Shown here: positions 6,072-53,767 of the stretch, one piece after another
How positions within the stretch are numbered: the stretch's first letter is position 1
How the letters are laid out: each line of letters starts with the position of its first letter
Source: an uncultured Candidatus Saccharibacteria bacterium
GTDB taxonomy: Bacteria > Patescibacteriota > Minisyncoccia > Phycocordibacterales > PALSA-1337
Reading direction: 5' to 3'
Length of the DNA: 64,000 bases
Assembly (NCBI GenBank): GCA_964416985.1
Contig: CAYQFS010000002.1
Span: 57,155 to 121,154 of the forward strand
The notes under the pieces: model-generated
Databases searched by the model: none
What the model saw: the letters and a program-made list of their open reading frames with translations, nothing else
Told to the model about the DNA's origin: nothing
Made by a program: the position numbers and the translations under genes

Positions 6072-6950
6072 ATGAAAACCTCGCTTAAGCGCATTACGAC
6101 AAAAGACAACATCGAGCTTGTTGGTCTTCTTCATGAGCCAGATACTGGTTCAGATACTGTTCTCGTGCATGTACACGGAATGGCAGGTAATTTTTATGAG
6201 AATAAGTTTCTTGATAACATTGCCGAAACTCTTACAAACTCTGGAATTGCTTTTTTTGCTTTTAATAATAGGGGATGTGAAAGTATCAAGGATCTTACTG
6301 CTACAGTTGACGGAAAAAAGAAATTCGTAAAAGTTGGAAATGCGTATGAAAAGTTCGAGGACTGCCTTTTAGATATTGGCGCTGCCATAGATGCAGTTTC
6401 AACTTGGGGTTTTTCCAAGATACATTTATCAGGCCACAGCCTTGGTAGCCCAAAAGTTTCCTATTATCTAGCAACTACAGCAGATAGTCGAGTAAATTCA
6501 GTTCTCCTATTGTCACCTTCAGATATGCTCGGCTTAGTTCGTAGTGATTCAGAAAGATTTAAAAAAGATATCAAGGAAGCAACTGACAAAGTTACTTCAG
6601 GAAGGGGAAATGAACTTCTCTCAACTCAAGTCTGGGATGAGTATCCTATAAGTGGAGCAACTTATCTAAGTTTATTTGGAGATGATTCTCCTGTTGCTGT
6701 GTTTAATTTTCATAAGCCCTCAGACAGGCTTGAAACTCTAGGCAAAATACACCAGCCACTCATAGTTATCATGGGTCGAAAAGATGATTCTCTTGTGGTG
6801 TCTATAGAAGAGACAATGGAAAGAATTACTAATGCCTGCACAAAAAGTCCACACGTAGAAACAGTAATACTTGGAGATGCAAATCATGGATATTTTGGAG
6901 ATGAACAGGCATTGGCTGATGCAATTAAGATATGGATTCTAAAAATATGA
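6072..6950 (+). CDS. Alpha/beta-hydrolase fold protein (GHSLG nucleophile elbow)
   Basis: HVHGMAGNFYEN ... HLSGHSLGSPKVSYY ... GDANHGYFGDE, consistent with a Ser/Asp/His hydrolase. There is no signal peptide. Confidence 0.75.
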   Translation: MKTSLKRITTKDNIELVGLLHEPDTGSDTVLVHVHGMAGNFYENKFLDNIAETLTNSGIAFFAFNNRGCESIKDLTATVDGKKKFVKVGNAYEKFEDCLLDIGAAIDAVSTWGFSKIHLSGHSLGSPKVSYYLATTADSRVNSVLLLSPSDMLGLVRSDSERFKKDIKEATDKVTSGRGNELLSTQVWDEYPISGATYLSLFGDDSPVAVFNFHKPSDRLETLGKIHQPLIVIMGRKDDSLVVSIEETMERITNACTKSPHVETVILGDANHGYFGDEQALADAIKIWILKI

Positions 6951-10447: not shown

Positions 10448-11522
10448 GGCTTACCTAGCCTCGGTCATACTCCTTACGATCGGAGGTTTTTTTGTATTTA
10501 GTTCTGCATCTCTTGGACTTCTTGCTCGAAATGGGGAAATCTTTCAGTCTGTAGCACTTACCCAGAGTATCGGACTTCTCATCGGGATTGCTGCATTTTG
10601 GGTAATGTCATTTATTCATTACAAGAATCTGCGAAAATATTCCTTCTACATTTTTATTTTTGCACTTATTCTAAATCTTCTTCTCTTCATTCCTGGACTT
10701 TCTCTCTCCCACGGAGGAGCGGCTAGATGGATCAATCTTAAATTTGTAACGTTTCAGCCCTCAGAATTTTTAAAAATCGCTTTTATTATTTACTTTGCAG
10801 CCTGGCTTGCAAGCGTTAAGGAAAAAATTACAACGTTCAAACTTGGAATGCTTCCTTACATTGTTCTCATGGGAATTCTTGGGCTCCTCCTCTTGAGCCA
10901 GAGTGACACAGATACCCTCATCGTAATTGCAGGAACTGGTATCGCAATGCTTTTTGCTGCAGGAGCTAGGATCCGCTACATCGCTGCTATGATACTTGCC
11001 CTTGTTGTGGTAGTCGCTGGAGTTGCATATACGAGGCCATATGTGCGCGACAGAATTATGACATTTATTAACCCAACAGCCGATATCCAAGGAAGCGGCT
11101 ACCAGATTAATCAGTCTTTGATTGCCATCGGTTCAGGTCAAATAGCAGGAAGAGGTTACGGGCAGAGCATTCAGAAGTTCAATTATCTTCCTGAACCAAT
11201 CGGAGACTCGATCTTTGCAGTTCAAGCAGAAGAGTTCGGATTCGTTGGTAGTTTCATCCTTGTTGGACTCTTCCTTCTCTTTGCCTTTAGATCATTCAAA
11301 ATTGCCACCCGAAGCCCTGACAGTTTTGGTGGACTTGTGGTAATGGGAATTGCTATACTTACTATCGTCGAATCATTCATGAACATTTCGTCGATGCTTG
11401 GCATCATTCCACTTTCAGGAATGCCGCTTCTTTTTGTAAGCCACGGCGGAACGGCTCTCATTATCATCCTCGGGGCTGCAGGAATCATCGCCAACATTTC
11501 CAAATACCAAAAAACTCTCTAA
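10404..11522 (+). CDS. ftsW: SEDS-family peptidoglycan polymerase FtsW/RodA
   Basis: About 10 TM segments with the conserved blocks QPSEFLKIAFIIYFAAWL and GSGQIAGRGYGQSIQKFNYLPEPIGDSIFAVQAEEFGFVG. An alternative start at 10413 is possible. Confidence 0.85.
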   Translation: MSTMEHPQKHRKIDKAYLASVILLTIGGFFVFSSASLGLLARNGEIFQSVALTQSIGLLIGIAAFWVMSFIHYKNLRKYSFYIFIFALILNLLLFIPGLSLSHGGAARWINLKFVTFQPSEFLKIAFIIYFAAWLASVKEKITTFKLGMLPYIVLMGILGLLLLSQSDTDTLIVIAGTGIAMLFAAGARIRYIAAMILALVVVVAGVAYTRPYVRDRIMTFINPTADIQGSGYQINQSLIAIGSGQIAGRGYGQSIQKFNYLPEPIGDSIFAVQAEEFGFVGSFILVGLFLLFAFRSFKIATRSPDSFGGLVVMGIAILTIVESFMNISSMLGIIPLSGMPLLFVSHGGTALIIILGAAGIIANISKYQKTL

Positions 11523-11537
11523 TATACTATTTTACTT

Positions 11538-12674
11538 ATGAAAATACTTTTTGCTGGAGGAGGAACAGGGGGACATTTTTATCCAATTATTGCCATTGCT
11601 GAAGCTATTCGCGAAAGAGCAAAGGAGAAGAAAATTCTCATGCCACAGCTCTACTTTATGTCGACAAATAGGTACAATCCTCGATCCCTTTTTGATAATG
11701 ACATAGAATTTGTAGGTATCACGACAGGGAAAATGCGCCGATATTTTTCTATTCTCAATTTTCTTGATTTCTTCAAGACTGCTTGGGGAGCTCTTTCCGC
11801 TACAATTAAGATGTATCAAATATATCCAGATGTCGTATTCGGAAAAGGAGGATACGCAAGTTTTCCAGCTATTTTTGCAGCTAAATTGTTAAAAATTCCA
11901 GTCATTATCCACGAATCCGACAGCAGTCCAGGAAGAGTAAATGCCTGGGCAGCGAAATTTGCACGTAGGATTGCCGTCTCATATCCTGAGGCGATCGAAC
12001 GATTCAATTCCAAGGTAGACAGATCAAAAATCGCCTTTACCGGAAACCCTGTGCGAAAGGATGTCCGAGATCCTCTCTCAAATGGCGCGCGCGAATTCCT
12101 CAATCTTGAGGAAACGACACCAGTCGTTGTCATCCTTGGAGGCTCGCAAGGATCTCAAAGGATCAATGATGCTGTCATTGACGCACTAACTGAACTCATT
12201 GAACGCTACCAGATTATTCACCAGGCAGGCAGAAGTAATTTTGAAAATGTAAAACAGACTATGAGTGTAGTCCTCAAAGACAAGCCGAATGCCTACCGCT
12301 ATCACCCCTTTGAGTACTTGAACGACCTCGCGCTCCGTATGTCTGCAGGAGTTGCAGATATCATTGTCTCGAGAGCTGGATCAGCAATATTTGAGATTGC
12401 TTCATGGGGAATTCCTTCAATCATTGTTCCTCTATCACGGGAGGTGAGCCACGACCAGACCGACAATGCCTTCTCCTATGCAAAATCAGGAGCCTGTGTT
12501 GTAATTGAGGAGCATAACCTGAGCTCGCATATTTTGATTTCTGAGATTGACAGAATCATAAATAGTCAGTCTATTAGGGATAAAATGAAGGCTTCGGCCA
12601 AGGAATGGAGCCATCCCGAGGCTGCTCAGAAAATTGCCGATGTAATCCTTGAGACAGCACTGGAACACGAGTGA
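11538..12674 (+). CDS. murG: Lipid II synthase MurG (UDP-GlcNAc:undecaprenyl-PP-MurNAc-pentapeptide GlcNAc transferase)
   Basis: MKILFAGGGTGGHFYPIIAIAEAI and the C-terminal GT-B fold motifs. Adjacent to ftsW as in dcw clusters. Confidence 0.9.
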   Translation: MKILFAGGGTGGHFYPIIAIAEAIRERAKEKKILMPQLYFMSTNRYNPRSLFDNDIEFVGITTGKMRRYFSILNFLDFFKTAWGALSATIKMYQIYPDVVFGKGGYASFPAIFAAKLLKIPVIIHESDSSPGRVNAWAAKFARRIAVSYPEAIERFNSKVDRSKIAFTGNPVRKDVRDPLSNGAREFLNLEETTPVVVILGGSQGSQRINDAVIDALTELIERYQIIHQAGRSNFENVKQTMSVVLKDKPNAYRYHPFEYLNDLALRMSAGVADIIVSRAGSAIFEIASWGIPSIIVPLSREVSHDQTDNAFSYAKSGACVVIEEHNLSSHILISEIDRIINSQSIRDKMKASAKEWSHPEAAQKIADVILETALEHE

Positions 12675-43521: not shown

Positions 43522-43526
43522 GTTTG

Positions 43527-43556
43527 TTGACAAATAGGTACTAAACGTGCTATAAT
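43527..43556 (+). promoter_or_regulatory. Strong consensus promoter TTGACA-N18-TGcTATAAT
   Basis: Perfect -35 and -10 hexamers with an extended TG. Spacer is 18 nt. Confidence 0.6.
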
Positions 43557-43563
43557 AGTACAA

Positions 43564-43755
43564 GTTGAGAACGTTGAAATCTTACTATCTTAGGAAATGT
43601 CTGACTTTCTCCAGTTGGAGCAGCATCTTGAATATCTCCTCGCGATTGCGAACGAGGTAAACAAGAAAACTGCTCCAGCAAACAAACGGAGCGAGCCAGT
43701 CACCTGGGTAACAACATGGTGAGCTAGTCCGCGAGACTGCAGAAAATCTGCAAAC
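43564..43755 (+). promoter_or_regulatory. Long (about 192 nt) structured 5' leader; candidate cis-regulatory RNA
   Basis: Nested helices GGAGCAG ... CTGCTCC and CCTCG ... CGAGG. A hairpin CTGCAG-aaaat-CTGCA ends 5 nt before the ATG. Such a leader is unusual here, where most genes have leaders of 0-20 nt. Confidence 0.35.
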
Positions 43756-44670
43756 ATGAACGCAATCGAAAATAATACCGTTAAGCTTGCTAGTCACTTC
43801 CAACGCGGTGGTTGGGTCAGTCGGTGGGATGGACAGAAGTTTGTTAAAATCGCTCATGCCGCCGAAAACACGTGGCATGATGATGGCGACGACAGCAAGG
43901 TTGTTGTCCTGCCGGAAGGTTTCAAGGGTGCAGTTGGTGAGTTCCACGGCGTGTCGTCGTTGAGCTATCAGAGCTCGGTCACATTGATTGGATTCAATGA
44001 TGAGGAGCTCAATACTCCCTCACCGGTTCAAGGTTGGGACAATGTTGGTGTTGGATTTCGTGCCGAAAGGTGCGAACTGATCAGGAACCTTGGGGACTAC
44101 CTCAAGGCCCTTGCCAACAACTCGTTCGTCCCCATTCCTGAAGAGGGTTATGTACACCCAGTCTCCGGTAATCGCCTCGTCGAACTTCCCTTCGATTGGG
44201 GTGATCAGGCCGCGAATCACTACGCAGTGATTTCACCGAAGGGCGAGATTCTCTACGAAAGAAGCGGCTGCGCAGACAATGCCCCTGACCCTATCAAGGG
44301 CGAGGACGATTGGGAGTTTACTTCCTTTCGTTGCGATCAAGAACACGAACAGCACGAGTGCAACGAGCGCAACAACGCCGCACTCAAAGCAGGCTGGTCC
44401 GAAAGATGGCAAGAAGTTGCCAACCACATCCGTTCCTGCTACAGGGTCGGCCAAAATCCTCTGCCGACACTTCGAAAGAAGTATCCCGGGGTATGGAAAT
44501 ACCTAGCTCAAGGCAGCGACCAACCAGACAGCATCGTGGGTGAAATCCGATTCACCCAACTCCCCCAAAATGAAAACGGAACGGCCATTGCACCGAAGCT
44601 CGAATATGTCGACTTCTGGGGCAATGTTTGGAATCGGTGGCAGGTAAGTTATATCCCTGCCAAAAAGTAA
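43756..44670 (+). CDS. Hypothetical cytoplasmic Cys/His/Trp-rich protein (304 aa), GC-elevated gene
   Basis: Intact ORF with about 52% GC. No signal peptide. Motifs RCDQEHEQHECNERN, SGCADNAPDP. No family recognised. Confidence 0.5.
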   Translation: MNAIENNTVKLASHFQRGGWVSRWDGQKFVKIAHAAENTWHDDGDDSKVVVLPEGFKGAVGEFHGVSSLSYQSSVTLIGFNDEELNTPSPVQGWDNVGVGFRAERCELIRNLGDYLKALANNSFVPIPEEGYVHPVSGNRLVELPFDWGDQAANHYAVISPKGEILYERSGCADNAPDPIKGEDDWEFTSFRCDQEHEQHECNERNNAALKAGWSERWQEVANHIRSCYRVGQNPLPTLRKKYPGVWKYLAQGSDQPDSIVGEIRFTQLPQNENGTAIAPKLEYVDFWGNVWNRWQVSYIPAKK

Positions 44671-44741
44671 GATGAAACGCTGGAGAGCGTTCGATAAATA
44701 CTCAACCCCTTGCACGTTTGGTGCCTGGGGTTTTATTGTGT

Positions 44742-47687
44742 CTACTCCACAAACCCACTCATCCCACACCATTCACATTTACTGTCATCGCATTTCCCTT
44801 CTACTATCTTTCCGCTCCACACAGAATCAACAAGAGACTGTATCTCTCCTTTTACTTTTTCAATATCACTCGACTGTATAGGTAGTGTAATTGTGGGACA
44901 GCGGCCTTTGTCATCCGGAGAAACAAAAACGAGAGACGGGTGAATTGTCCTTCCTCTCCATCGCGGATCATTCCCTACTAGAATTTTGTAGAAGACAAGC
45001 TGGCGGAAATAGTTGCCAGTTGAGTCAGTCTTTGTCTCACCTTTTATGGCATTCACAGACATTGCTTGGCGAGTCTTGTAATCAAAGACATAAACATCTT
45101 TTCCGGTGTCGACAATTGCATCAAGCTTTCCATGAATTGGAATTTGTATTTCTTCCCCACTATATTTCCCCTTAAACTCCCCCTGAACCCAGCTTTCGGT
45201 AAAGACTGCAGAACCCTTTCCGTGTGCAAAATGTGACTCAAGAGCCTTTGCAATTGCTGGAACATCGGCAAGCAATTCTTTTTTTGCAGATTCCTTTTCG
45301 GCAATTGAAAGAAGAGAACTCACAAAATATTCGTTAATTTTTTCAATAAGGTTTTTCTCAAGAGACTTTGCAGATTTATTTTCCTGCTTCCAGATGAAAT
45401 CAAAAGCAAAATGCATGGCACTTCCCTTTTCCGCAGCAACAGAAGGAGCTTGAGGAAGTTTCAGAATACTTTGATACAAAAACGTATTTGGACATTCCAA
45501 AAAGTGATTGAGTGCAGTAACAGAGAGACCTTTCTCGATGAGAACTCTTTTTGCGAGATCGACAAGAGGAGAAGGCTTTGATGTTTTTTTGCTCATGCCC
45601 TGAGTGTCTTTTGAAGAATACATTTCGTCTGCACCAACTCGAGGAAGAGCAGTGTGAGAAGCATTTTTTCCTTCAAGTTCATCGATAAATCGCAAAGGTG
45701 TAAGGATTTTTCCATCAGATTCTTCGAGAGCTGTAAGAACTGTCACGTGCTTCCGTGCACGTGTGAGAGCAACATAAAAGAGCCGGCGAACATCGCGAAT
45801 ATCGCTGTCAGTCGTTTGTTTTCGTGGGAGAACAAATGAAGCTCCGCGCGGTCGCCCTACCCAGGCTTCCTCAGTGGCGTAGGGTATAAAGACATGATCG
45901 AACTCAAGACCCTTGCTTCCATGAGCAGTCATGGCCTGAAGCGGTAGGTTCGGAGCTCCAATGGAAACTTTGACAGTTCTTGATTCAGCAGAAAGCCGGT
46001 AGGAAATCATTTGTTCAATGAGTTTTTGCGGGTCATGAATGTCCCCCTCACGAACAAGCGACTCAGCAAGGGAAACAATTCCCCTCCAGACATGAACATA
46101 AGAAGGATCTTTTGAAATCACATCCACAAAACCGGAAGCTTCTGCAAGGTGTATTAAGAAACCGAGAGGGCTGTCGCTTAAAATAAGTGCTTGAGTAGTT
46201 TTGATTCGAGGAAGCTCTTTGTCAAAATCAATAGCAACCCCGCTCCTCAGATTTCGCACAAGTTCCGCTCCTTTTTGAAATGGAATGTCCCACAAACCGG
46301 AAATAAGTGTCTTTGAAAGAAGATCTGTACGGGAAGGATTTGCGATGTATTCAATGAGGTCAAAGAAAAGCCGACCAACAGGATGACTAAAAATGTCGAT
46401 ACTTCTTTCCGATGAAACAGCCACCCCTTTTGATTCAAAAAGTCGAATGATTCGATCAAGATCCCTGTTTCTCCTTACAATAATTGCAACAGTCGCCCCT
46501 GGCTCCTTTTTTCTCAAGTTCTGCACTTCTTTGACGAGATTCATTTCAATAGCTGCCACATTTTCTCCAGTCACAATATCAATCGGCTGAGGTTTGTCTT
46601 TACTTCCTGATGTAAGCTTGATACGGAGGTTTGCATACTCATCCTCTTCATAATTCTTTTCAATCATCCCAAAACTTGCGTCAAGAATTCCCTGGTGAGA
46701 GCGATAGTTCATATCAAGCTGGATTACCCTCATCGCTGGCCATTTCTTTTGCAAAAGAAGAAAGTTCTCAACAGATGCTCCTTGGAAACGATAGATCGCT
46801 TGCTTTTCGTCTCCAACAATAAAAATATTTGGTGTTTCGAAAAATTCAGCAATGAGGCCCACGATAAAATTTTGAGCGTCATTTGTATCCTGATGCTCAT
46901 CGATGTGAATATAGAGATATTTTTCCTGGAGCAATCGGAGAAGAAGCTCGTCACTCCTAATTGCCAAAAGAAGCTCAATAATGAGATCATTAAAATCCAT
47001 CTTCTTTGCTTCTCTTTTTTGCGATTCATAAAGTTTGTACACCTTTGCAAAAAGTTGTGTCCTCTCACACTTTTCAATCTGCTCCTTTGCCTCCGCTCTC
47101 AATTGCCCCTTCGTCGCCCCTCGTGTCGAAATGGATGCTTCATCGTGTTTAATTCTTTCAATTTCATTTCCCGCATACTGCTCCACCATTTCTGGTGTGA
47201 GTGCTTCCCTTTTTGCATCATCGATCGATCTTATGATTCCTGGAAGATACGCATCGGGCTTGCCTGCCGGCCTCAAGTTAGAGAACTTTGGATCGGAAAT
47301 GATTGATCGAATGAGTGACTCCTGTTCAATGTCAGTCATCTGCTTCATGTCGCTTATGTGAAGAAAATGATCGGGATATTCTGCAATGACCGAAGAAGCA
47401 AATCCATGAAATGTATGGATCCGTACGTCATGTGCTCTGTCCCCAATTATTGCCTGGAGTTTCTGTCTCATAGCCTTCACCCCTGCGTCGGTGTAAGTAA
47501 TGGCAAGAATTCCATTTGCCGGCGTATCTGTCCTTTTAAGGATGTTTGCTATTCGAAGCGTGAGTATCGTGGTCTTCCCCGTTCCAGGGCCTGCAATGAC
47601 CATTATAGGGCCTTCTATAGCGTCTACAGCCTGCTTTTGGCCCTTATTAAGCTTTTTGTAGAGGGTGTTAAAGGCGTCGGTAATCAT
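44742..47687 (-). CDS. Single-chain UvrD/PcrA-family helicase fused to a C-terminal PD-(D/E)xK nuclease with a Cys cluster (AddA/RecB-like)
   Basis: N-terminal VIAGPGTGKTTIL, helicase motifs through VALTRARKHV, C-terminal GKLDAIVDTGKDVYVFDYKT ... YFRQLVFYKIL, and a terminal KCDDSKCEWCG. Start chosen at MITDAF, where TATAAT lies 6 nt upstream. The longer supplied ORF runs across the upstream terminator. Confidence 0.8.
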   Translation of the reverse strand: MITDAFNTLYKKLNKGQKQAVDAIEGPIMVIAGPGTGKTTILTLRIANILKRTDTPANGILAITYTDAGVKAMRQKLQAIIGDRAHDVRIHTFHGFASSVIAEYPDHFLHISDMKQMTDIEQESLIRSIISDPKFSNLRPAGKPDAYLPGIIRSIDDAKREALTPEMVEQYAGNEIERIKHDEASISTRGATKGQLRAEAKEQIEKCERTQLFAKVYKLYESQKREAKKMDFNDLIIELLLAIRSDELLLRLLQEKYLYIHIDEHQDTNDAQNFIVGLIAEFFETPNIFIVGDEKQAIYRFQGASVENFLLLQKKWPAMRVIQLDMNYRSHQGILDASFGMIEKNYEEDEYANLRIKLTSGSKDKPQPIDIVTGENVAAIEMNLVKEVQNLRKKEPGATVAIIVRRNRDLDRIIRLFESKGVAVSSERSIDIFSHPVGRLFFDLIEYIANPSRTDLLSKTLISGLWDIPFQKGAELVRNLRSGVAIDFDKELPRIKTTQALILSDSPLGFLIHLAEASGFVDVISKDPSYVHVWRGIVSLAESLVREGDIHDPQKLIEQMISYRLSAESRTVKVSIGAPNLPLQAMTAHGSKGLEFDHVFIPYATEEAWVGRPRGASFVLPRKQTTDSDIRDVRRLFYVALTRARKHVTVLTALEESDGKILTPLRFIDELEGKNASHTALPRVGADEMYSSKDTQGMSKKTSKPSPLVDLAKRVLIEKGLSVTALNHFLECPNTFLYQSILKLPQAPSVAAEKGSAMHFAFDFIWKQENKSAKSLEKNLIEKINEYFVSSLLSIAEKESAKKELLADVPAIAKALESHFAHGKGSAVFTESWVQGEFKGKYSGEEIQIPIHGKLDAIVDTGKDVYVFDYKTRQAMSVNAIKGETKTDSTGNYFRQLVFYKILVGNDPRWRGRTIHPSLVFVSPDDKGRCPTITLPIQSSDIEKVKGEIQSLVDSVWSGKIVEGKCDDSKCEWCGMSGFVE

Positions 47688-47711
47688 GCCTGAATTATAC
47701 CTTTTTTGCAT

Positions 47712-47758
47712 AAAAAATACCGCCCGAGCTTCGGTTAAGAAGCCCGGGACGGGTGAAA
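47712..47758 (-). terminator. GC-rich intrinsic terminator after pyrC (minus strand), T6 tail
   Basis: The minus strand reads CCGTCCCGGGCTTC-ttaacc-GAAGCTCGGGCGG then TATTTTTT. Confidence 0.6.
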
Positions 47759-47773
47759 GATACAGGTCACAGA

Positions 47774-48865
47774 TTAAGCAACTATCTGCCAATCCATTTT
47801 TTCTCCCGCAAAAAACGGGATGATGCTGTCATTGAGTGCAGGTACGGGAACTTCGGTAGGAACGATCCATTCTGAACGGCGGAGGACCAGTTCTCCCTCG
47901 TTCAATTCATACCCATAAAAACGGGCACCAAATTCCGAAAGGAACGGTTCAGCCTTTTCAAGCTTGCCACGACTCTCAAAGAAGGAGAGTACGAGCGACA
48001 ACGCAGGAATGGTAACCCACACACCGCACGGACAATCGTTCGGCGCCTGTTTTGCACTTAAGAGATGTGCTGCGTCATCTCCGGCATACCAGAAGCGAGG
48101 ATGACCAGAAAGAATCACCTCTTGAATGGCTGCGCGATCTTCCGGATCCTTGGCTCCAGGTTTGAAGGCACCAGTGTGAACACAGATCTTGCCTTTACTC
48201 CGTCTGCTGTAACCAGAGAGATCATCTGACGTGAGATAAATGTGCTGAACAGTAACCCCTGCTCCAACATTCTCTCCCTGATCCTTGACCCATTCAACCA
48301 TGTCCCGCGAAGAAACATGTTCGACACTGATTTTCAAACTTGGAATCGCAGCAGTGATGAGCGAGAGAATTGCTCTGAAAGCAGACTCCTTGAGACGACC
48401 AATAACATCATAAGAGGGATGCTCGGAATGAAACTGAGCAACCATACCTAGCTCTGCAACAACGTGCAGTGCTGGATAGATCTTGAGGTAATCGAGAACT
48501 CCATTTTCTGAATGAGTCGTGACGTACCGCGGATAGATCTTTACGATCCTGACACCACAAGCAAATGCCTCACGCACCATTTTTGGAGTAGTCGACTCCG
48601 TAATCTGAATCGTCATCACAAGCTCGAAATACTGCCCTTGTGTAAAGGTCTTTGCAATCGCTTCGATGCTGTCCTTATAGGCGACCGCCTGTGGACCTGT
48701 CAGGATAGCGGGGAGAGTATTCGGCTCCCCCACCACCCTTCGGCGCCAGCCGTGATTGACGAAGTATGGCACAAGAAATTCGAGTAACTTTTCTTGCCTG
48801 AAATGCGCATGCCAGTTGTCTGGTAAGCGCAGAATAACTGTATTTATGTCTTCACTTATGTTCAT
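47774..48865 (-). CDS. pyrC: Dihydroorotase, class II (E. coli PyrC type); GC-elevated, SD-bearing gene
   Basis: LPDNWHAHFRQEKLLEFLVPYF vs E. coli [27 protein letters not shown] vs CGCAGC. C-terminal PFFAGEKMDWQIVA vs PFLAGETVRWSVKQ. GGAAGG lies 8 nt upstream of the ATG, a Shine-Dalgarno that native neighbours lack. Confidence 0.8.
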   Translation of the reverse strand: MNISEDINTVILRLPDNWHAHFRQEKLLEFLVPYFVNHGWRRRVVGEPNTLPAILTGPQAVAYKDSIEAIAKTFTQGQYFELVMTIQITESTTPKMVREAFACGVRIVKIYPRYVTTHSENGVLDYLKIYPALHVVAELGMVAQFHSEHPSYDVIGRLKESAFRAILSLITAAIPSLKISVEHVSSRDMVEWVKDQGENVGAGVTVQHIYLTSDDLSGYSRRSKGKICVHTGAFKPGAKDPEDRAAIQEVILSGHPRFWYAGDDAAHLLSAKQAPNDCPCGVWVTIPALSLVLSFFESRGKLEKAEPFLSEFGARFYGYELNEGELVLRRSEWIVPTEVPVPALNDSIIPFFAGEKMDWQIVA

Positions 48866-48962
48866 TTTTTACCTTCCATTTCCTTTTAACAATTGTTGTC
48901 GGTTTCTTATCTGAAGAAACATTATCTTAAAGCCTTAATAAAATCAACTTAATTTTTAACAT

Positions 48963-49003
48963 AAAAAAACAACCCCCGACCTGGCATGGCCAAGCGGGGG
49001 TTG
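48963..49003 (-). terminator. Intrinsic terminator CAACCCCCG-N16-CGGGGGTTG with T7 tail (minus strand)
   Basis: 9-bp GC stem 50 nt after the stop at 49056, followed on the minus strand by TTTTTTT. Confidence 0.65.
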
Positions 49004-49055
49004 GAACTCAACGAGGAGTGATTAATTCTCGTTTGTTGTTATTTAGGTCGCAGCA

Positions 49056-49811
49056 TCAGGCTACGACTGTTTTGCGTCGGATGACACACAGTGAGGTAAT
49101 ACCACACCCGAGCAAAGCGAGGGTCGAGCCCTTATCCGGAACAGCGGCTGAGGTAACACTGACATTATCAAACCTCGCCGAGTAGGAACGATCACCGTAA
49201 TTGTAGATCTCGAGGAACGCCGTTGTAGCTGAATTTGCATAGGCTGGATTGCCCAGAGCATTATCAGTACGAACAATTGACCCATCGATACTGTACGTAA
49301 CTGTGCCTCCGAGGTATGACATTTCGAAATCATGCCAACCAAGAGTCACCGGAGCCAGGGTAGGCAACCACAAACCATTGACATCATCAAAGGTATAGAA
49401 TCCGCCGGCCGAACCAGTAGGATTACGAAATGCGATAATGTTATAGTCGGCAGTATTTTCGTCCCCAGGAAGCCCGGTGCGAAGCCAGAAACTGGCATTC
49501 GCCAAGCCGCCCAGTAGATCGGAAGTGACTTCGAGTTGAGCTTTCGCAATCCAATTGACCACGCCACCAGCATCACGCTGAATGCCCTGATAATTGTAGA
49601 ACGAGCCCGGCCCATCATAGCCAGCAGGAGTAACACCAAGTTCAATGGCGCCACCGCTGATAGCAACGGTCGTAGGAAGCCGTCGATCGACGCCCCATGC
49701 TGGATCAACACCGGGACCGTTTGCAGGATCTGTAAATCCGACAGCCGAAGCTGACGTGATTCCCGCCAAGGCAATCGCCAGGGCGCTTGTAGTAAGGAGG
49801 ATCTTTTTCAT
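49056..49811 (-). CDS. Secreted protein with C-terminal PEP-CTERM (exosortase) sorting signal; GC-elevated gene
   Basis: Cleavable signal peptide MKKILLTTSALAIALAGITSASA. The C-terminus VPDKGSTLALLGCGITSLCVIRRK carries the VPDxGST motif, a hydrophobic span and RRK, the PEP-CTERM hallmark. About 53% GC. Confidence 0.7.
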   Translation of the reverse strand: MKKILLTTSALAIALAGITSASAVGFTDPANGPGVDPAWGVDRRLPTTVAISGGAIELGVTPAGYDGPGSFYNYQGIQRDAGGVVNWIAKAQLEVTSDLLGGLANASFWLRTGLPGDENTADYNIIAFRNPTGSAGGFYTFDDVNGLWLPTLAPVTLGWHDFEMSYLGGTVTYSIDGSIVRTDNALGNPAYANSATTAFLEIYNYGDRSYSARFDNVSVTSAAVPDKGSTLALLGCGITSLCVIRRKTVVA

Positions 49812-49957
49812 AACTAATTGTATCCGTAACTGTAGTTTGGTTTATGTTTTAGAAAATGGACTCCCAGCACAAATTTGCTGCGATTTTCCCGTATAAATAA
49901 CAACTTCAAGGTGCTGAAAGTCCAGGGAGAAATATAGCACAAGGAATGATTTTTGGC

Positions 49958-49990
49958 AAGAGAAAAGGGGCTTTTGAGCCCCTATCCCCT
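49958..49990 (-). terminator. Intrinsic terminator after rpoD (GGGGCTC / AGCCCC, T-run on the minus strand)
   Basis: The minus strand reads GGGGCTCAAAAGCCCC then TTTTCTCTT, directly after the rpoD stop. Confidence 0.55.
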
Positions 49991-51217
49991 TTAGTAATTC
50001 TTGAGCCTATTTATCTTCTCGTGCTGTCTGATTTTCTCATGGGCCTTAGCCTCGATCTGGCGGATACGCTCACGAGTAACCCCAAACTCCTTGCCTACCT
50101 CCTCAAGAGTGTGAGTAATGCCATCGAGTAGGCCGTGACGCATTTCGAGGATCTTCTTTTCTTTTTCAGATAGATCACCGAGAATTTCATTTACCTGATC
50201 ACGAAGAATGCGACGTGAAGATTCCTGATCGGGAGAGAGAATTTTGTCGTCAGAAAGAAAATCACCGAGAGTCGACTTCCCATCGTCACTATCATCACCA
50301 ACAGGACTTTCGAGAGAGACAACATCCTGGTCAATCTTTTCAATATTGTAAATCTTCTCGACATCGAGACCCATTTCGGTGGCAATCTCTTCGGGTAATG
50401 GATCGCGGCCAAGGTCCTGGGTCAATCGGCGAACAACCTGCTTGTACTTTGCTATTGTTTCAACCATATGCACTGGAACACGGATGGTTCGAGACTGGTC
50501 GGCGAGGGCACGGGTAATAGCCTGGCGAATCCACCAGGTTGCATAGGTCGAAAACTTGTATCCTTTTGTCCAGTCAAACTTGTCAACAGCCTTAAAAAGA
50601 CCGAGGTTACCCTCCTGGATGAGGTCAAGGAGCGTGAGGTCGGGAGAGCGGCCAACATATTTTTTTGCAATGGAAACGACGAGACGAAGATTGGCACGAG
50701 CGAGAAGGTTCTTTGCCTCCATATCGCCAGCCTGAATGCGTCGTGCAAGCTCCTTTTCATTACCTGCAGAAATGAGGGGATACTGCCCAATTTCTTTTAG
50801 ATACATTTGGATAGAATCGTATGAGGAATCACTTCGTGCCCCGTAAGAGTACTTTTTTGGAGCTGCAACTTCAGGTTCCACTTCCAAAAGACCACCTCCT
50901 TCAAGGACGTCGATTCCGGCTGTACCGAACTTTACATAAAGTTCATCGAGGAATGAAATGTCCTGATCAATGGTCGGAAATTCCTTGAGAATCTCATCAT
51001 AGGTAACAAAGCCTCTCTCCTTTCCCTTGAGAATAAGTTTATTTGCCTTTGATTCAAAATCCTTGGCCTTGTTTTGGACAGCACTTCCCTTTGCCCCCGC
51101 TTTCTTTTCAGGCTTTTTTAATTTTCCTTTTGATGCACTCTTTGCGACCTTACTGACCTTTCCCTTCACCGACTTCTTTGCCGGCTTTTTCTTTGCAACT
51201 TTTTTAGCTTTCTTCAT
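49991..51217 (-). CDS. rpoD: RNA polymerase sigma-70 factor RpoD with a lysine-rich N-terminal tail
   Basis: Regions 2-4 are conserved (DLIQEGNLGLFKAVDKFDWTKGYKFSTYATWWIRQAITRA, region 4.2 LEEVGKEFGVTRERIRQIE). N-terminus is KKAKKVAKKKPAKK ... Confidence 0.9.
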   Translation of the reverse strand: MKKAKKVAKKKPAKKSVKGKVSKVAKSASKGKLKKPEKKAGAKGSAVQNKAKDFESKANKLILKGKERGFVTYDEILKEFPTIDQDISFLDELYVKFGTAGIDVLEGGGLLEVEPEVAAPKKYSYGARSDSSYDSIQMYLKEIGQYPLISAGNEKELARRIQAGDMEAKNLLARANLRLVVSIAKKYVGRSPDLTLLDLIQEGNLGLFKAVDKFDWTKGYKFSTYATWWIRQAITRALADQSRTIRVPVHMVETIAKYKQVVRRLTQDLGRDPLPEEIATEMGLDVEKIYNIEKIDQDVVSLESPVGDDSDDGKSTLGDFLSDDKILSPDQESSRRILRDQVNEILGDLSEKEKKILEMRHGLLDGITHTLEEVGKEFGVTRERIRQIEAKAHEKIRQHEKINRLKNY

Positions 51218-53012: not shown

Positions 53013-53149
53013 GGTTCATATAGTATATCAAAAATGAAGGGAGAATATTCTTGACTTTATCTATTTTGGTTTGGTAGTATATTAGAGTAAGTTTTTTACT
53101 TACACCGGATTTTGATCAAGGCCTCTTCTTTGTGAAGGGGCCTTTGAAT

Positions 53150-53767
53150 TTATCTATATCTAAATCTATCCATATTTAGCCTATATTCAAAATCATTAGC
53201 ATATAATATCTTTTTAATAAAACCCTCTTTACTTCCATCTATGACTTCTCTCCCTATATGACTTCGCGCTCCAAAAACATATATTTCCTTATCATACTTA
53301 TTAAAAAGATACTTCATTACACACGATAGATCCCCGTCACCAGAAAATATAACGAGTCTGTCATATTCATCCTTCATTCTAAGAATATCGAGTGTCATCT
53401 CTACATCAAGATCACACTTTTTATCGAATCCACTTTCAAACTTATTATCATGAATGTATTTGACTCTTTTTGTAATTACCTCGAAACCGTTTGATTGGGC
53501 TCTCGAAATAATATTATACGACCAATCCTTCATGTAAGTTGATCCTTCATTTTCTCCATAATCAGAACCATAGTAAAATCTTCTCAAGAACTTGTTCCCT
53601 AGAGTAAGGTGTTTTACTAATTTAGCTAGTTCCTGTATTCCTATTTTCCAACCAAGACTTTCCTTCCATTTTTCTACATTACCAAAATCAACGATTACCA
53701 AAGTTCTTGTCTGGTACTGTTGGAAAGAATCCAGGAATATTCGTATTTCTTCTTTATTCATCCCCAA
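53150..53767 (-). CDS. NYN-domain (LabA-like, PIN-related) predicted RNase
   Basis: LVIVDFGNV ... CDLDVEMTLDIL ... LVIFSGDGDLSCV. These are the conserved acidic residues of the NYN fold. Confidence 0.65.
   Translation of the reverse strand: MGMNKEEIRIFLDSFQQYQTRTLVIVDFGNVEKWKESLGWKIGIQELAKLVKHLTLGNKFLRRFYYGSDYGENEGSTYMKDWSYNIISRAQSNGFEVITKRVKYIHDNKFESGFDKKCDLDVEMTLDILRMKDEYDRLVIFSGDGDLSCVMKYLFNKYDKEIYVFGARSHIGREVIDGSKEGFIKKILYANDFEYRLNMDRFRYR

Follow-up and report, generated by a model that had tools for sequence, protein, structure and literature searches.

A secreted VPDxG-tailed protein and a strain-variable dihydroorotase gene between rpoD and a helicase gene in an apparent Patescibacteria genome

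The 64-kb stretch of DNA analysed here (contig CAYQFS010000002.1; hereafter the window) carries two open reading frames (ORFs) between rpoD and the gene of an AddA-like helicase, both on the reverse strand: pyrC (47774–48865; 363 amino acids (aa)), which encodes a divergent class II-type dihydroorotase, and a gene (49056–49811) for a secreted protein of 251 aa that ends in a VPDxG-type C-terminal tail. The original prediction had located both ORFs correctly and had named their products essentially right, the tail being a VPDSG variant of the exosortase-type signal it had proposed, and it had taken the pair for a GC-rich two-gene block acquired laterally from a Gram-negative-type donor. This last part did not hold. 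It is likely that the two genes are independent transcription units and not one imported block, and that they reside in the genome of an apparent member of the Patescibacteria (candidate phyla radiation, CPR). Both genes fall within families already known, and most of what had suggested a foreign origin is explained by amino acid composition together with normal strain-level gene turnover; the turnover of pyrC between strains is the part of the lateral-transfer reading that survives.

Three relatives of the locus were compared with the window. The sister contig L010 is a 42-kb JGI contig carrying P0054, a protein from the same 90% cluster as the 251-aa protein that was also present on several Logan contigs. 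It is collinear with window positions 53027–37193 (approximately 16 kb) at 80–82% nucleotide (nt) identity, with the shared order dnaG, rpoD, VPDxG gene, helicase, DsbA, DinB, YgjP, an RNase H-like gene, HisRS, TruB, and BipA, and the two sequences are distinguished by two indels only, i.e., the pyrC cassette and a second cassette (44735–43526) that holds an ORF of 304 aa (ORF304). At the first of these, the counterpart of window positions 48903–47756 in L010 is 205 bp of unrelated sequence (6161–6365), in which a small Cys/His-rich ORF lies between the conserved promoter-like element and terminator, and no remnant of pyrC was detected in L010 by tblastn; pyrC is strain-variable at this slot, being absent from the sister. 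The VPDxG protein is 90% identical (aa) between the window and L010, as compared with 98% for RpoD, 88% for DnaG, and 86% for the helicase. Since its ortholog occupies the same slot in L010, with a housekeeping-like divergence and the same GC excess, the gene is resident and was not recently acquired, and since L010 has it without pyrC, the two genes do not form a unit.

The other two relatives also carry members of the 251-aa protein family in this slot, although more divergent ones. L003 (ENA ERZ25039480 contig_91500) is more distant (RpoD 79–90%, helicase approximately 60% identity) and has in its slot a VPDGG-tailed family member, 46–49% identical to the 251-aa protein, followed by the gene of a 386-aa AAA_28 ATPase (11189–12349) and no pyrC. 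Gene calling in this contig breaks rpoC, dnaG, rpoD, and the helicase gene into two to four pieces each, which look like long-read frameshift errors and not like real pseudogenes. L047 (NCBI assembly GCA_054403235.1) shows the order rpoD 3′ end, a 258-aa VPDQGSS-tailed member (38% identical), pyrC, and a pyrE-like phosphoribosyltransferase (PRTase) gene (2555–2977), the latter following a second copy of the promoter-like element. The pyrC of L047, taken together with the promoter-like element before it and the terminator behind it, is 90.8% identical (nt) to that of the window; the flanking sequence could be aligned over 104 bp only, and there the identity is 80% (vs. 91% for pyrC). When the housekeeping proteins of the window were searched with tblastn against the taxonomically labelled loci, no shared genes were found.

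The signals for transcription follow the same division into two units. For the 251-aa gene, a promoter-like site (TTGCCA-17-TATATT with an upstream TG; reverse strand, 49931–49959; a consensus match only) lies directly downstream of the rpoD terminator, and the gene is closed by its own intrinsic terminator (reverse strand, 48962–49003), a 15-bp hairpin followed by T7 (-27.5 kcal/mol, z = -5.96), of which the 3′ arm and the T-run are conserved in L010. The variable slot is headed by a second promoter-like element read from the sequence (TTGATT-17-TAATGT; reverse strand, 48919–48947), which is conserved in L010 before a different ORF and is found twice in L047, before pyrC and before the PRTase gene, and which probably acts as a promoter. 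An intrinsic terminator present in both L010 and L047 closes the slot (reverse strand, 47712–47752; -23.7 kcal/mol, z = -5.04), and no shuffled sequence folded as stably as either of the two hairpins. The strong terminators predicted for both genes are therefore real, but they are not distinctive: rpoD, a core gene, also has its own, so that terminators mark nothing foreign here, and as the slot terminator exists in the pyrC-less L010 it is a feature of the slot, not something that pyrC brought along. The candidate view of the pyrC terminator as an imported element was rejected for this reason. The locus looks like a clean case in which ORFs have replaced one another between a promoter and a terminator that are both conserved, pyrC occupying a position that other ORFs take in the relatives.

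A Shine-Dalgarno (SD) sequence had also been claimed for pyrC, unlike for its neighbours. A purine-rich SD-like GGAAGG does lie six nt before the pyrC ATG (reverse strand, 48872–48877) and recurs in L047. It stands out in a genome that is nearly SD-free, as any AGGA, GGAG, or GAGG within 20 nt upstream was found for only 5 of the 60 ORFs in the window, although it is not the consensus GGAGG.

The base composition, which had first suggested a foreign block, was analysed by codon position. The two-gene block of 2038 bp has a GC content of 48.9%, the maximum among equal-sized segments of the 64 kb (top 0.08%), so the elevation itself is confirmed; its predicted size (50–55% against a background of about 40%) was too large, the values being 48.7% for pyrC and 52.2% for the 251-aa gene against 42.9% for the whole window. 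Compared with the 43 window genes of at least 150 codons (mean GC3 40.2 ± 6.1%), the GC3 of pyrC (47.8%, z = +1.24) and of the 251-aa gene (47.6%, z = +1.21) is unremarkable, and the latter is extreme at the second codon position only (GC2 z = +3.84). This excess reflects the make-up of the protein, which contains much Gly (12.4% vs. 7.5% in the window proteome), Ala (12.0% vs. 7.3%), and Thr (9.2% vs. 5.5%), and little Lys (2.0% vs. 7.8%) and Glu (2.0% vs. 7.0%). The gene stands approximately 10 points above its locus in L010 too (53.0% vs. 43.0%), as it does in the window. The pyrC genes of other CPR-like loci are likewise 5–6 GC points above their surroundings (50.1% vs. 44.4% and 51.0% vs. 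45.9%), hence the modest excess of pyrC is characteristic of its family. With the excess located at GC2 and kept in orthologs, the GC elevation was dismissed as evidence of transfer.

The 251-aa protein and its C-terminal tail

Inspection and hydrophobicity identify, as predicted, a Sec-type signal peptide at the N-terminus (reverse strand, 49743–49811; aa 1–23, MKKILLTTSALAIALAGITSASA followed by V), composed of MKK, a hydrophobic stretch starting at residue 4, and a cleavage site between SASA and V. It is followed by a ConA-like beta-sandwich (approximately aa 24–222) and by a sorting signal of the VPDSG-CTERM type (reverse strand, 49071–49142), in which the motif VPDKGST precedes a hydrophobic helix (LALLGCGITSLCVI) and a basic RRK, the complete C-terminus being VPDKGST-LALLGCGITSLCVI-RRK-TVVA. 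The original prediction had called this a textbook PEP-CTERM tail. The tripartite, exosortase-type architecture is present, but the protein had no match to the canonical models PF07589 (Pfam, E ≤ 0.1) and TIGR02595 (NCBIfam, E ≤ 1) and instead passed the VPDSG-CTERM models PF18205 (30.5 bits vs. a cut-off of 25; aa 223–247 of 251) and TIGR03778 (29.7 bits vs. a cut-off of 22; aa 224–247). These two models describe a variant PEP-CTERM class delineated in Verrucomicrobia, for which XrtC (TIGR04151) is the partner exosortase.

The family is small. A search of 5.8 billion proteins recovered four close VPDxG-tailed members, the query included, and together with a profile search approximately a dozen distant members at 24–33% identity, most of them with canonical PEP-CTERM tails and one encoded in a four-gene PEP-CTERM cluster; the relatives P0051 and P0052, with VPEP tails, do match the canonical models. 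Four of the six members of the clade pass the VPDSG-CTERM models, and the motif occurs in the variants VPDKGST, VPDGGST, VPDGGNT, APDGGAT, and VPDQGSS. In divergent alleles the motif is 57–86% identical (100% in the near-identical P0054) as compared with 37–53% for the body of the protein, a conservation which speaks for a factor that recognises the motif, beyond a mere hydrophobic anchor.

In comparison with known systems, the protein shares with VPDSG-CTERM proteins (TIGR03778, PF18205) the VPDxGST motif, the hydrophobic helix, the terminal Arg/Lys cluster, and the N-terminal signal peptide, and differs from them by having K, G, or Q and not S at the fourth motif position across its family, by its apparent patescibacterial host, and by its occurrence as one copy with no cognate exosortase in the 64 kb. 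With canonical PEP-CTERM proteins (the flocculation protein PepA and exosortase-dependent surface proteins) it has in common the tripartite architecture and, through the distant homologs at 24–33% identity, a ConA-like body that there carries true VPEP tails, in place of which it has VPDKG itself.

The AlphaFold model of the protein (predicted local distance difference test (pLDDT) 81, predicted TM-score (pTM) 0.76) is a beta-sandwich, for which Foldseek against the PDB returned GH16 lichenases, 3-keto-glycoside hydratases, and the calreticulin lectin domain (TM-score 0.52–0.56, probability 1.0). The arrangement of two antiparallel sheets is that of the ConA-like lectin/glucanase fold (GH16 1GBG, DUF1080 3-keto-glycoside hydratases, calreticulin), with which the sequence identity is only 10–18%. 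A regular-expression search found no GH16 catalytic motif (ExDxxE or ExDxE) in the protein, and a GH16 hydrolase function was rejected on this ground. As the sandwich is ConA-like and lacks the catalytic motif, the modelled body is probably a carbohydrate-binding, lectin-like module and not a hydrolase.

Taken as a working mechanism, the Sec signal peptide would export the 251-aa protein to the cell surface, where the ConA-like beta-sandwich would be the working part, and the VPDxG-S/T motif, hydrophobic helix, and RRK would together constitute an exosortase-type (VPDSG-CTERM) sorting signal. The tail may simply retain the protein in the membrane, or it may be cleaved and processed by a dedicated enzyme of the exosortase family whose gene lies elsewhere in the genome; the second option is judged more probable because the motif is so well conserved. 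The gene itself appears to have been inherited in the slot downstream of rpoD across the clade, evolving fast and sometimes by allele replacement, and the relatives compared suggest that a divergent allele has taken its place at least once. A conflict had been seen between an exosortase-type tail and the envelope type suggested by the rest of the window. To our knowledge, Patescibacteria have no outer membrane; archaeosortases, however, work in cells without an outer membrane, so that the envelope type is not in itself contradictory to such a tail.

PyrC and its family

PyrC aligns along its full length with the E. coli-type, homodimeric class II dihydroorotases, as had been predicted. The best structures found with phmmer were 5vgm of Vibrio cholerae (1.1e-46; query 7–361 on chain 4–344) and 1j79 of E. 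coli (9e-38), both of similar length. On TIGR00856 (pyrC_dimer) it scored 217.4 bits, under the curated equivalog cut-off of 292.95, and no Pfam match was obtained at E ≤ 0.1; PyrC is a member of a divergent sister clade and not of the curated equivalog. In an alignment of 41 family sequences, the HxH pair (H19, H21), the substrate-binding Arg and Asn (R23, N49), the carbamylated Lys (K109), two further His (H146, H183), the catalytic Asp (D263), and the His that follows it (H267) are invariant and align with the motifs of 5vgm, and the Thr-Thr of the flexible loop is nearly invariant. The window protein thus retains the metal ligands and the binding Arg/Asn/His of class II enzymes, from which it differs around residues 211–245.

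The gene neighbourhood within the family agrees with this assignment. In nearly all family loci pyrD lies immediately upstream of pyrC, and members also occur with pyrF and pyrB (e.g., pyrD-pyrC-pyrF-x-pyrB in Lichenihabitans), whereas the window pyrC stands without pyrD in the 64 kb; tblastn found no pyrD, pyrF, or pyrB there, in accordance with the earlier statement that no other pyrimidine gene is present. The full alignment, the catalytic residues, and the pyr neighbours identify a genuine, if divergent, dihydroorotase family. The window protein would accordingly be expected to act as a patescibacterial-type zinc amidohydrolase that interconverts carbamoyl-aspartate and dihydroorotate.

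The closest relatives of PyrC do not support a Gram-negative-type donor. Proteins at 40–65% identity include ones from metagenome-assembled genomes (MAGs) named Paceibacterota or Patescibacteria, and the 31 family loci found in GTDB species representatives belong to Patescibacteria-labelled MAGs or to Lichenihabitans/Lichenibacterium (Hyphomicrobiales), with the exception of three MAGs whose label reads just “bacterium” and of one distant sequence from Sodalis; among these representatives the clade of the window PyrC is limited to Patescibacteria and Lichenihabitans. In a rooted neighbour-joining (NJ) tree, the window sequence falls into a clade of 14 sequences (96/100 bootstrap), all of which are Patescibacteria-labelled or from CPR-like contigs, and the alphaproteobacterial (Lichenihabitans) group is nested inside the diversity of Patescibacteria. 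Scanning metagenomic contigs with PyrC yielded two distant loci only (61% and 50% identity). As other ORFs fill its position between the conserved promoter-like element and terminator in relatives, the gene would have come and gone at the slot by cassette replacement within the gene pool of Patescibacteria, and not from a Gram-negative donor.

Two observations on the wider family were made alongside. Some CPR pyrD genes are 54–65% identical to the Lichenihabitans type when the Lichenihabitans/Lichenibacterium/Hyphomicrobiales loci (L017, L019–L027, L029, L035, and L037) are compared with the Patescibacteria loci among L016–L045; with the nested position of the alphaproteobacterial PyrC clade, this suggests a transfer of pyrD-pyrC between CPR bacteria and the lichen-associated Lichenihabitans, probably in the direction from CPR to alphaproteobacteria. 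Tight pyrD-pyrC pairs were also seen in Patescibacteria-labelled or CPR-context loci (L005, L008, L016, L018, L028, L031, L032, L039, L040, L043, L045, and L048), at scores under the NCBIfam cut-offs (40–85 bits vs. 269 for pyrD, 217 vs. 293 for pyrC), and some of their products are named “hypothetical protein”. A divergent pyrD-pyrC(-pyrE/pyrF) module that lies far below annotation cut-offs in many Patescibacteria means that the pyrimidine capacity of CPR genomes may be under-annotated; nothing relevant joining dihydroorotase with Patescibacteria was found in the literature searched.

Competing explanations

A recent joint arrival of both genes, as a GC-rich block from a Gram-negative, exopolysaccharide-producing, and exosortase-bearing donor, would account for the highest GC content among equal-sized segments of the 64 kb, for the canonical PEP-CTERM tails of the distant relatives of the 251-aa protein (one of them in a four-gene cluster typical of such organisms), and for the alphaproteobacterial clade inside the PyrC family. 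It is nonetheless very improbable: L010 has the 251-aa gene without pyrC, the ortholog has diverged at a housekeeping rate with an equal GC excess, GC3 is not atypical, and PyrC groups with Patescibacteria-labelled and CPR-context sequences, within which Lichenihabitans is nested and not the reverse. Even more remote is the idea of an assembly chimera or of a contaminant joined into a CPR contig, for which the GC step at the block and the metagenomic origin of the contig could be cited. An independently assembled Logan contig (L001, SRR13287418) is 100% identical to the window from rpoD through the 251-aa gene into the 5′ part of pyrC, and the junctions further downstream are reproduced in the relatives, pyrC-terminator in L047 and terminator-helicase in L010, so that these sequences make a chimeric assembly unlikely.

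The direction of the pyrC turnover and the reader of the tail are less clear-cut. If pyrC was ancestral at the slot, it gave way to the small-ORF cassette in the lineage of L010 and to the AAA_28 gene in L003, and no gain took place in the window lineage. This scenario deserves real weight, though we hold it to be the less probable one: L047 has pyrC in this slot too, bracketed by an equivalent promoter-like element and terminator, the regulatory flanks are common to the window, L010, and L047, and the adjoining pyrE-like PRTase gene of L047 suggests a formerly larger pyr island, but the more distant L003 has no pyrC in the slot. We lean slightly towards a gain of pyrC, or an exchange within the genus, over a loss in the sister, because a solitary pyrC behind rpoD is derived for a family in which the gene normally follows pyrD directly, and because the L047 copy exceeds its 104-bp flank in identity (91% vs. 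80%), which hints at exchange between lineages. For the tail, it is possible, but in our opinion rather doubtful, that it serves as a plain membrane anchor or as the substrate of a sortase-like or other non-exosortase enzyme, its resemblance to VPDSG-CTERM being convergent or inherited from an ancient PEP-CTERM ancestor. In favour of this reading, the 64 kb contain no exosortase and a single VPDxG tail, the layout of VPDxG is the same as that of LPXTG, and no paper tying exosortase, archaeosortase, PEP-CTERM, or VPDSG-CTERM sorting to Patescibacteria, CPR, or Parcubacteria was found in the literature searched. The conservation of VPDxG(S/A/N)(T/S) beyond that of the body speaks against such a role, as do the fourth position, which is variable (K, G, Q) where sortases require Thr, and the scores above the cut-offs of the curated VPDSG-CTERM models.

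Several points weigh against our preferred account of two resident or exchanged units with an exosortase-processed surface protein. The assignment to Patescibacteria rests on gene content, on labelled PyrC relatives, and on syntenic contigs that are themselves unlabelled. Together with the SD-less, apparently leaderless style of the genes, these nevertheless point to a CPR genome: the gene content of the 64 kb includes FtsW, MurG, an M23 peptidase, a type IV pilus ATPase, and Liv transporters, and no outer-membrane genes were seen in it. The evidence on gain and loss is divided, with pyrC in the slot of L047 and missing from L010 and L003. PyrC is below the equivalog cut-off (217 vs. 293 bits), and none of its pathway partners was seen in the 64 kb. 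Regarding the tail, the window holds a single VPDxG tail, and in approximately 465 kb of fetched loci such tails are confined to the family of the 251-aa protein; classical exosortase systems usually have many substrates. As the original prediction had already stated, an exosortase for the processing step was not found within the window, in which the only proteins with 8–10 transmembrane segments are FtsW and the two Liv permeases.

A wider picture can be put forward tentatively, and we regard it as more speculative than the separation of the two units. A CPR lineage might use exosortase-type VPDSG-CTERM sorting to display a fast-evolving, allele-swapping ConA-like lectin, encoded beside rpoD, as a candidate protein for attachment of an episymbiont to its host, or a non-exosortase enzyme might read the VPDxG tail; the adjoining promoter-to-terminator “socket” might swap ORFs (pyrC, the pyrE-like gene, the Cys-rich ORF, and the AAA_28 ATPase gene) between strains. 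If true, either exosortase-type sorting extends to CPR bacteria or a non-exosortase reader of VPDxG is revealed. The main point of curiosity is thus which enzyme reads the VPDSG-type tail of a surface lectin-like protein, and since a VPDSG/PEP-CTERM-type signal is conserved in an apparent Patescibacteria clade, a cognate enzyme, if it exists, would offer a handle on how episymbionts build their surface.

Flanking genes and other variable positions

The conserved left-hand flank of the slot is rpoD (reverse strand, 49991–51217), with dnaG upstream and its own terminator at 49966–49983. The right-hand flank encodes a UvrD/PD-(D/E)XK (AddA-like) helicase-nuclease according to Pfam (reverse strand, 44742–47711). 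As called mechanically, the helicase ORF has a TTG start at 47792, by which it overlaps the end of pyrC and crosses the slot terminator. The real start is likely the ATG at 47711 or the ATG at 47687, downstream of the terminator, and the JGI gene call of the L010 helicase begins at the homologous ATGCAAAAA. Many starts in the window lie 5–10 nt past a TATAAT-like box, e.g., that of the helicase (GGTATAATTCAGGCATG), which suggests that leaderless mRNAs may be widespread in this genome. Rfam and tRNA scans revealed no RNA features in the window, and a search of PHROGs gave zero matches for its three atypical genes.

The second strain-specific cassette (43526–44735), precisely missing from L010, contains ORF304 (forward strand, 43756–44670; 304 aa), whose composition deviates more than that of any other ORF in the window (GC 52.1%, GC3 56.7%, z = +2.7). 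It is preceded by a perfect sigma-70-type promoter sequence (TTGACA-18-TATAAT, 43527–43556). No match to ORF304 was obtained in Pfam, NCBIfam, or PHROG, and a search of 1.84 billion proteins yielded only 46 representatives, 15 of which had E < 1e-30, so that ORF304 belongs to a rare family of unknown function. An NYN-domain gene of low GC content (32.4%; reverse strand, 53150–53767) lies between dnaG and rpoC in the window, and the region upstream of dnaG in L010 differs from it, with an rve_3 integrase fragment, an unannotated ORF of 151 aa, and a KilA-N gene; the position upstream of dnaG is another variable spot nearby.

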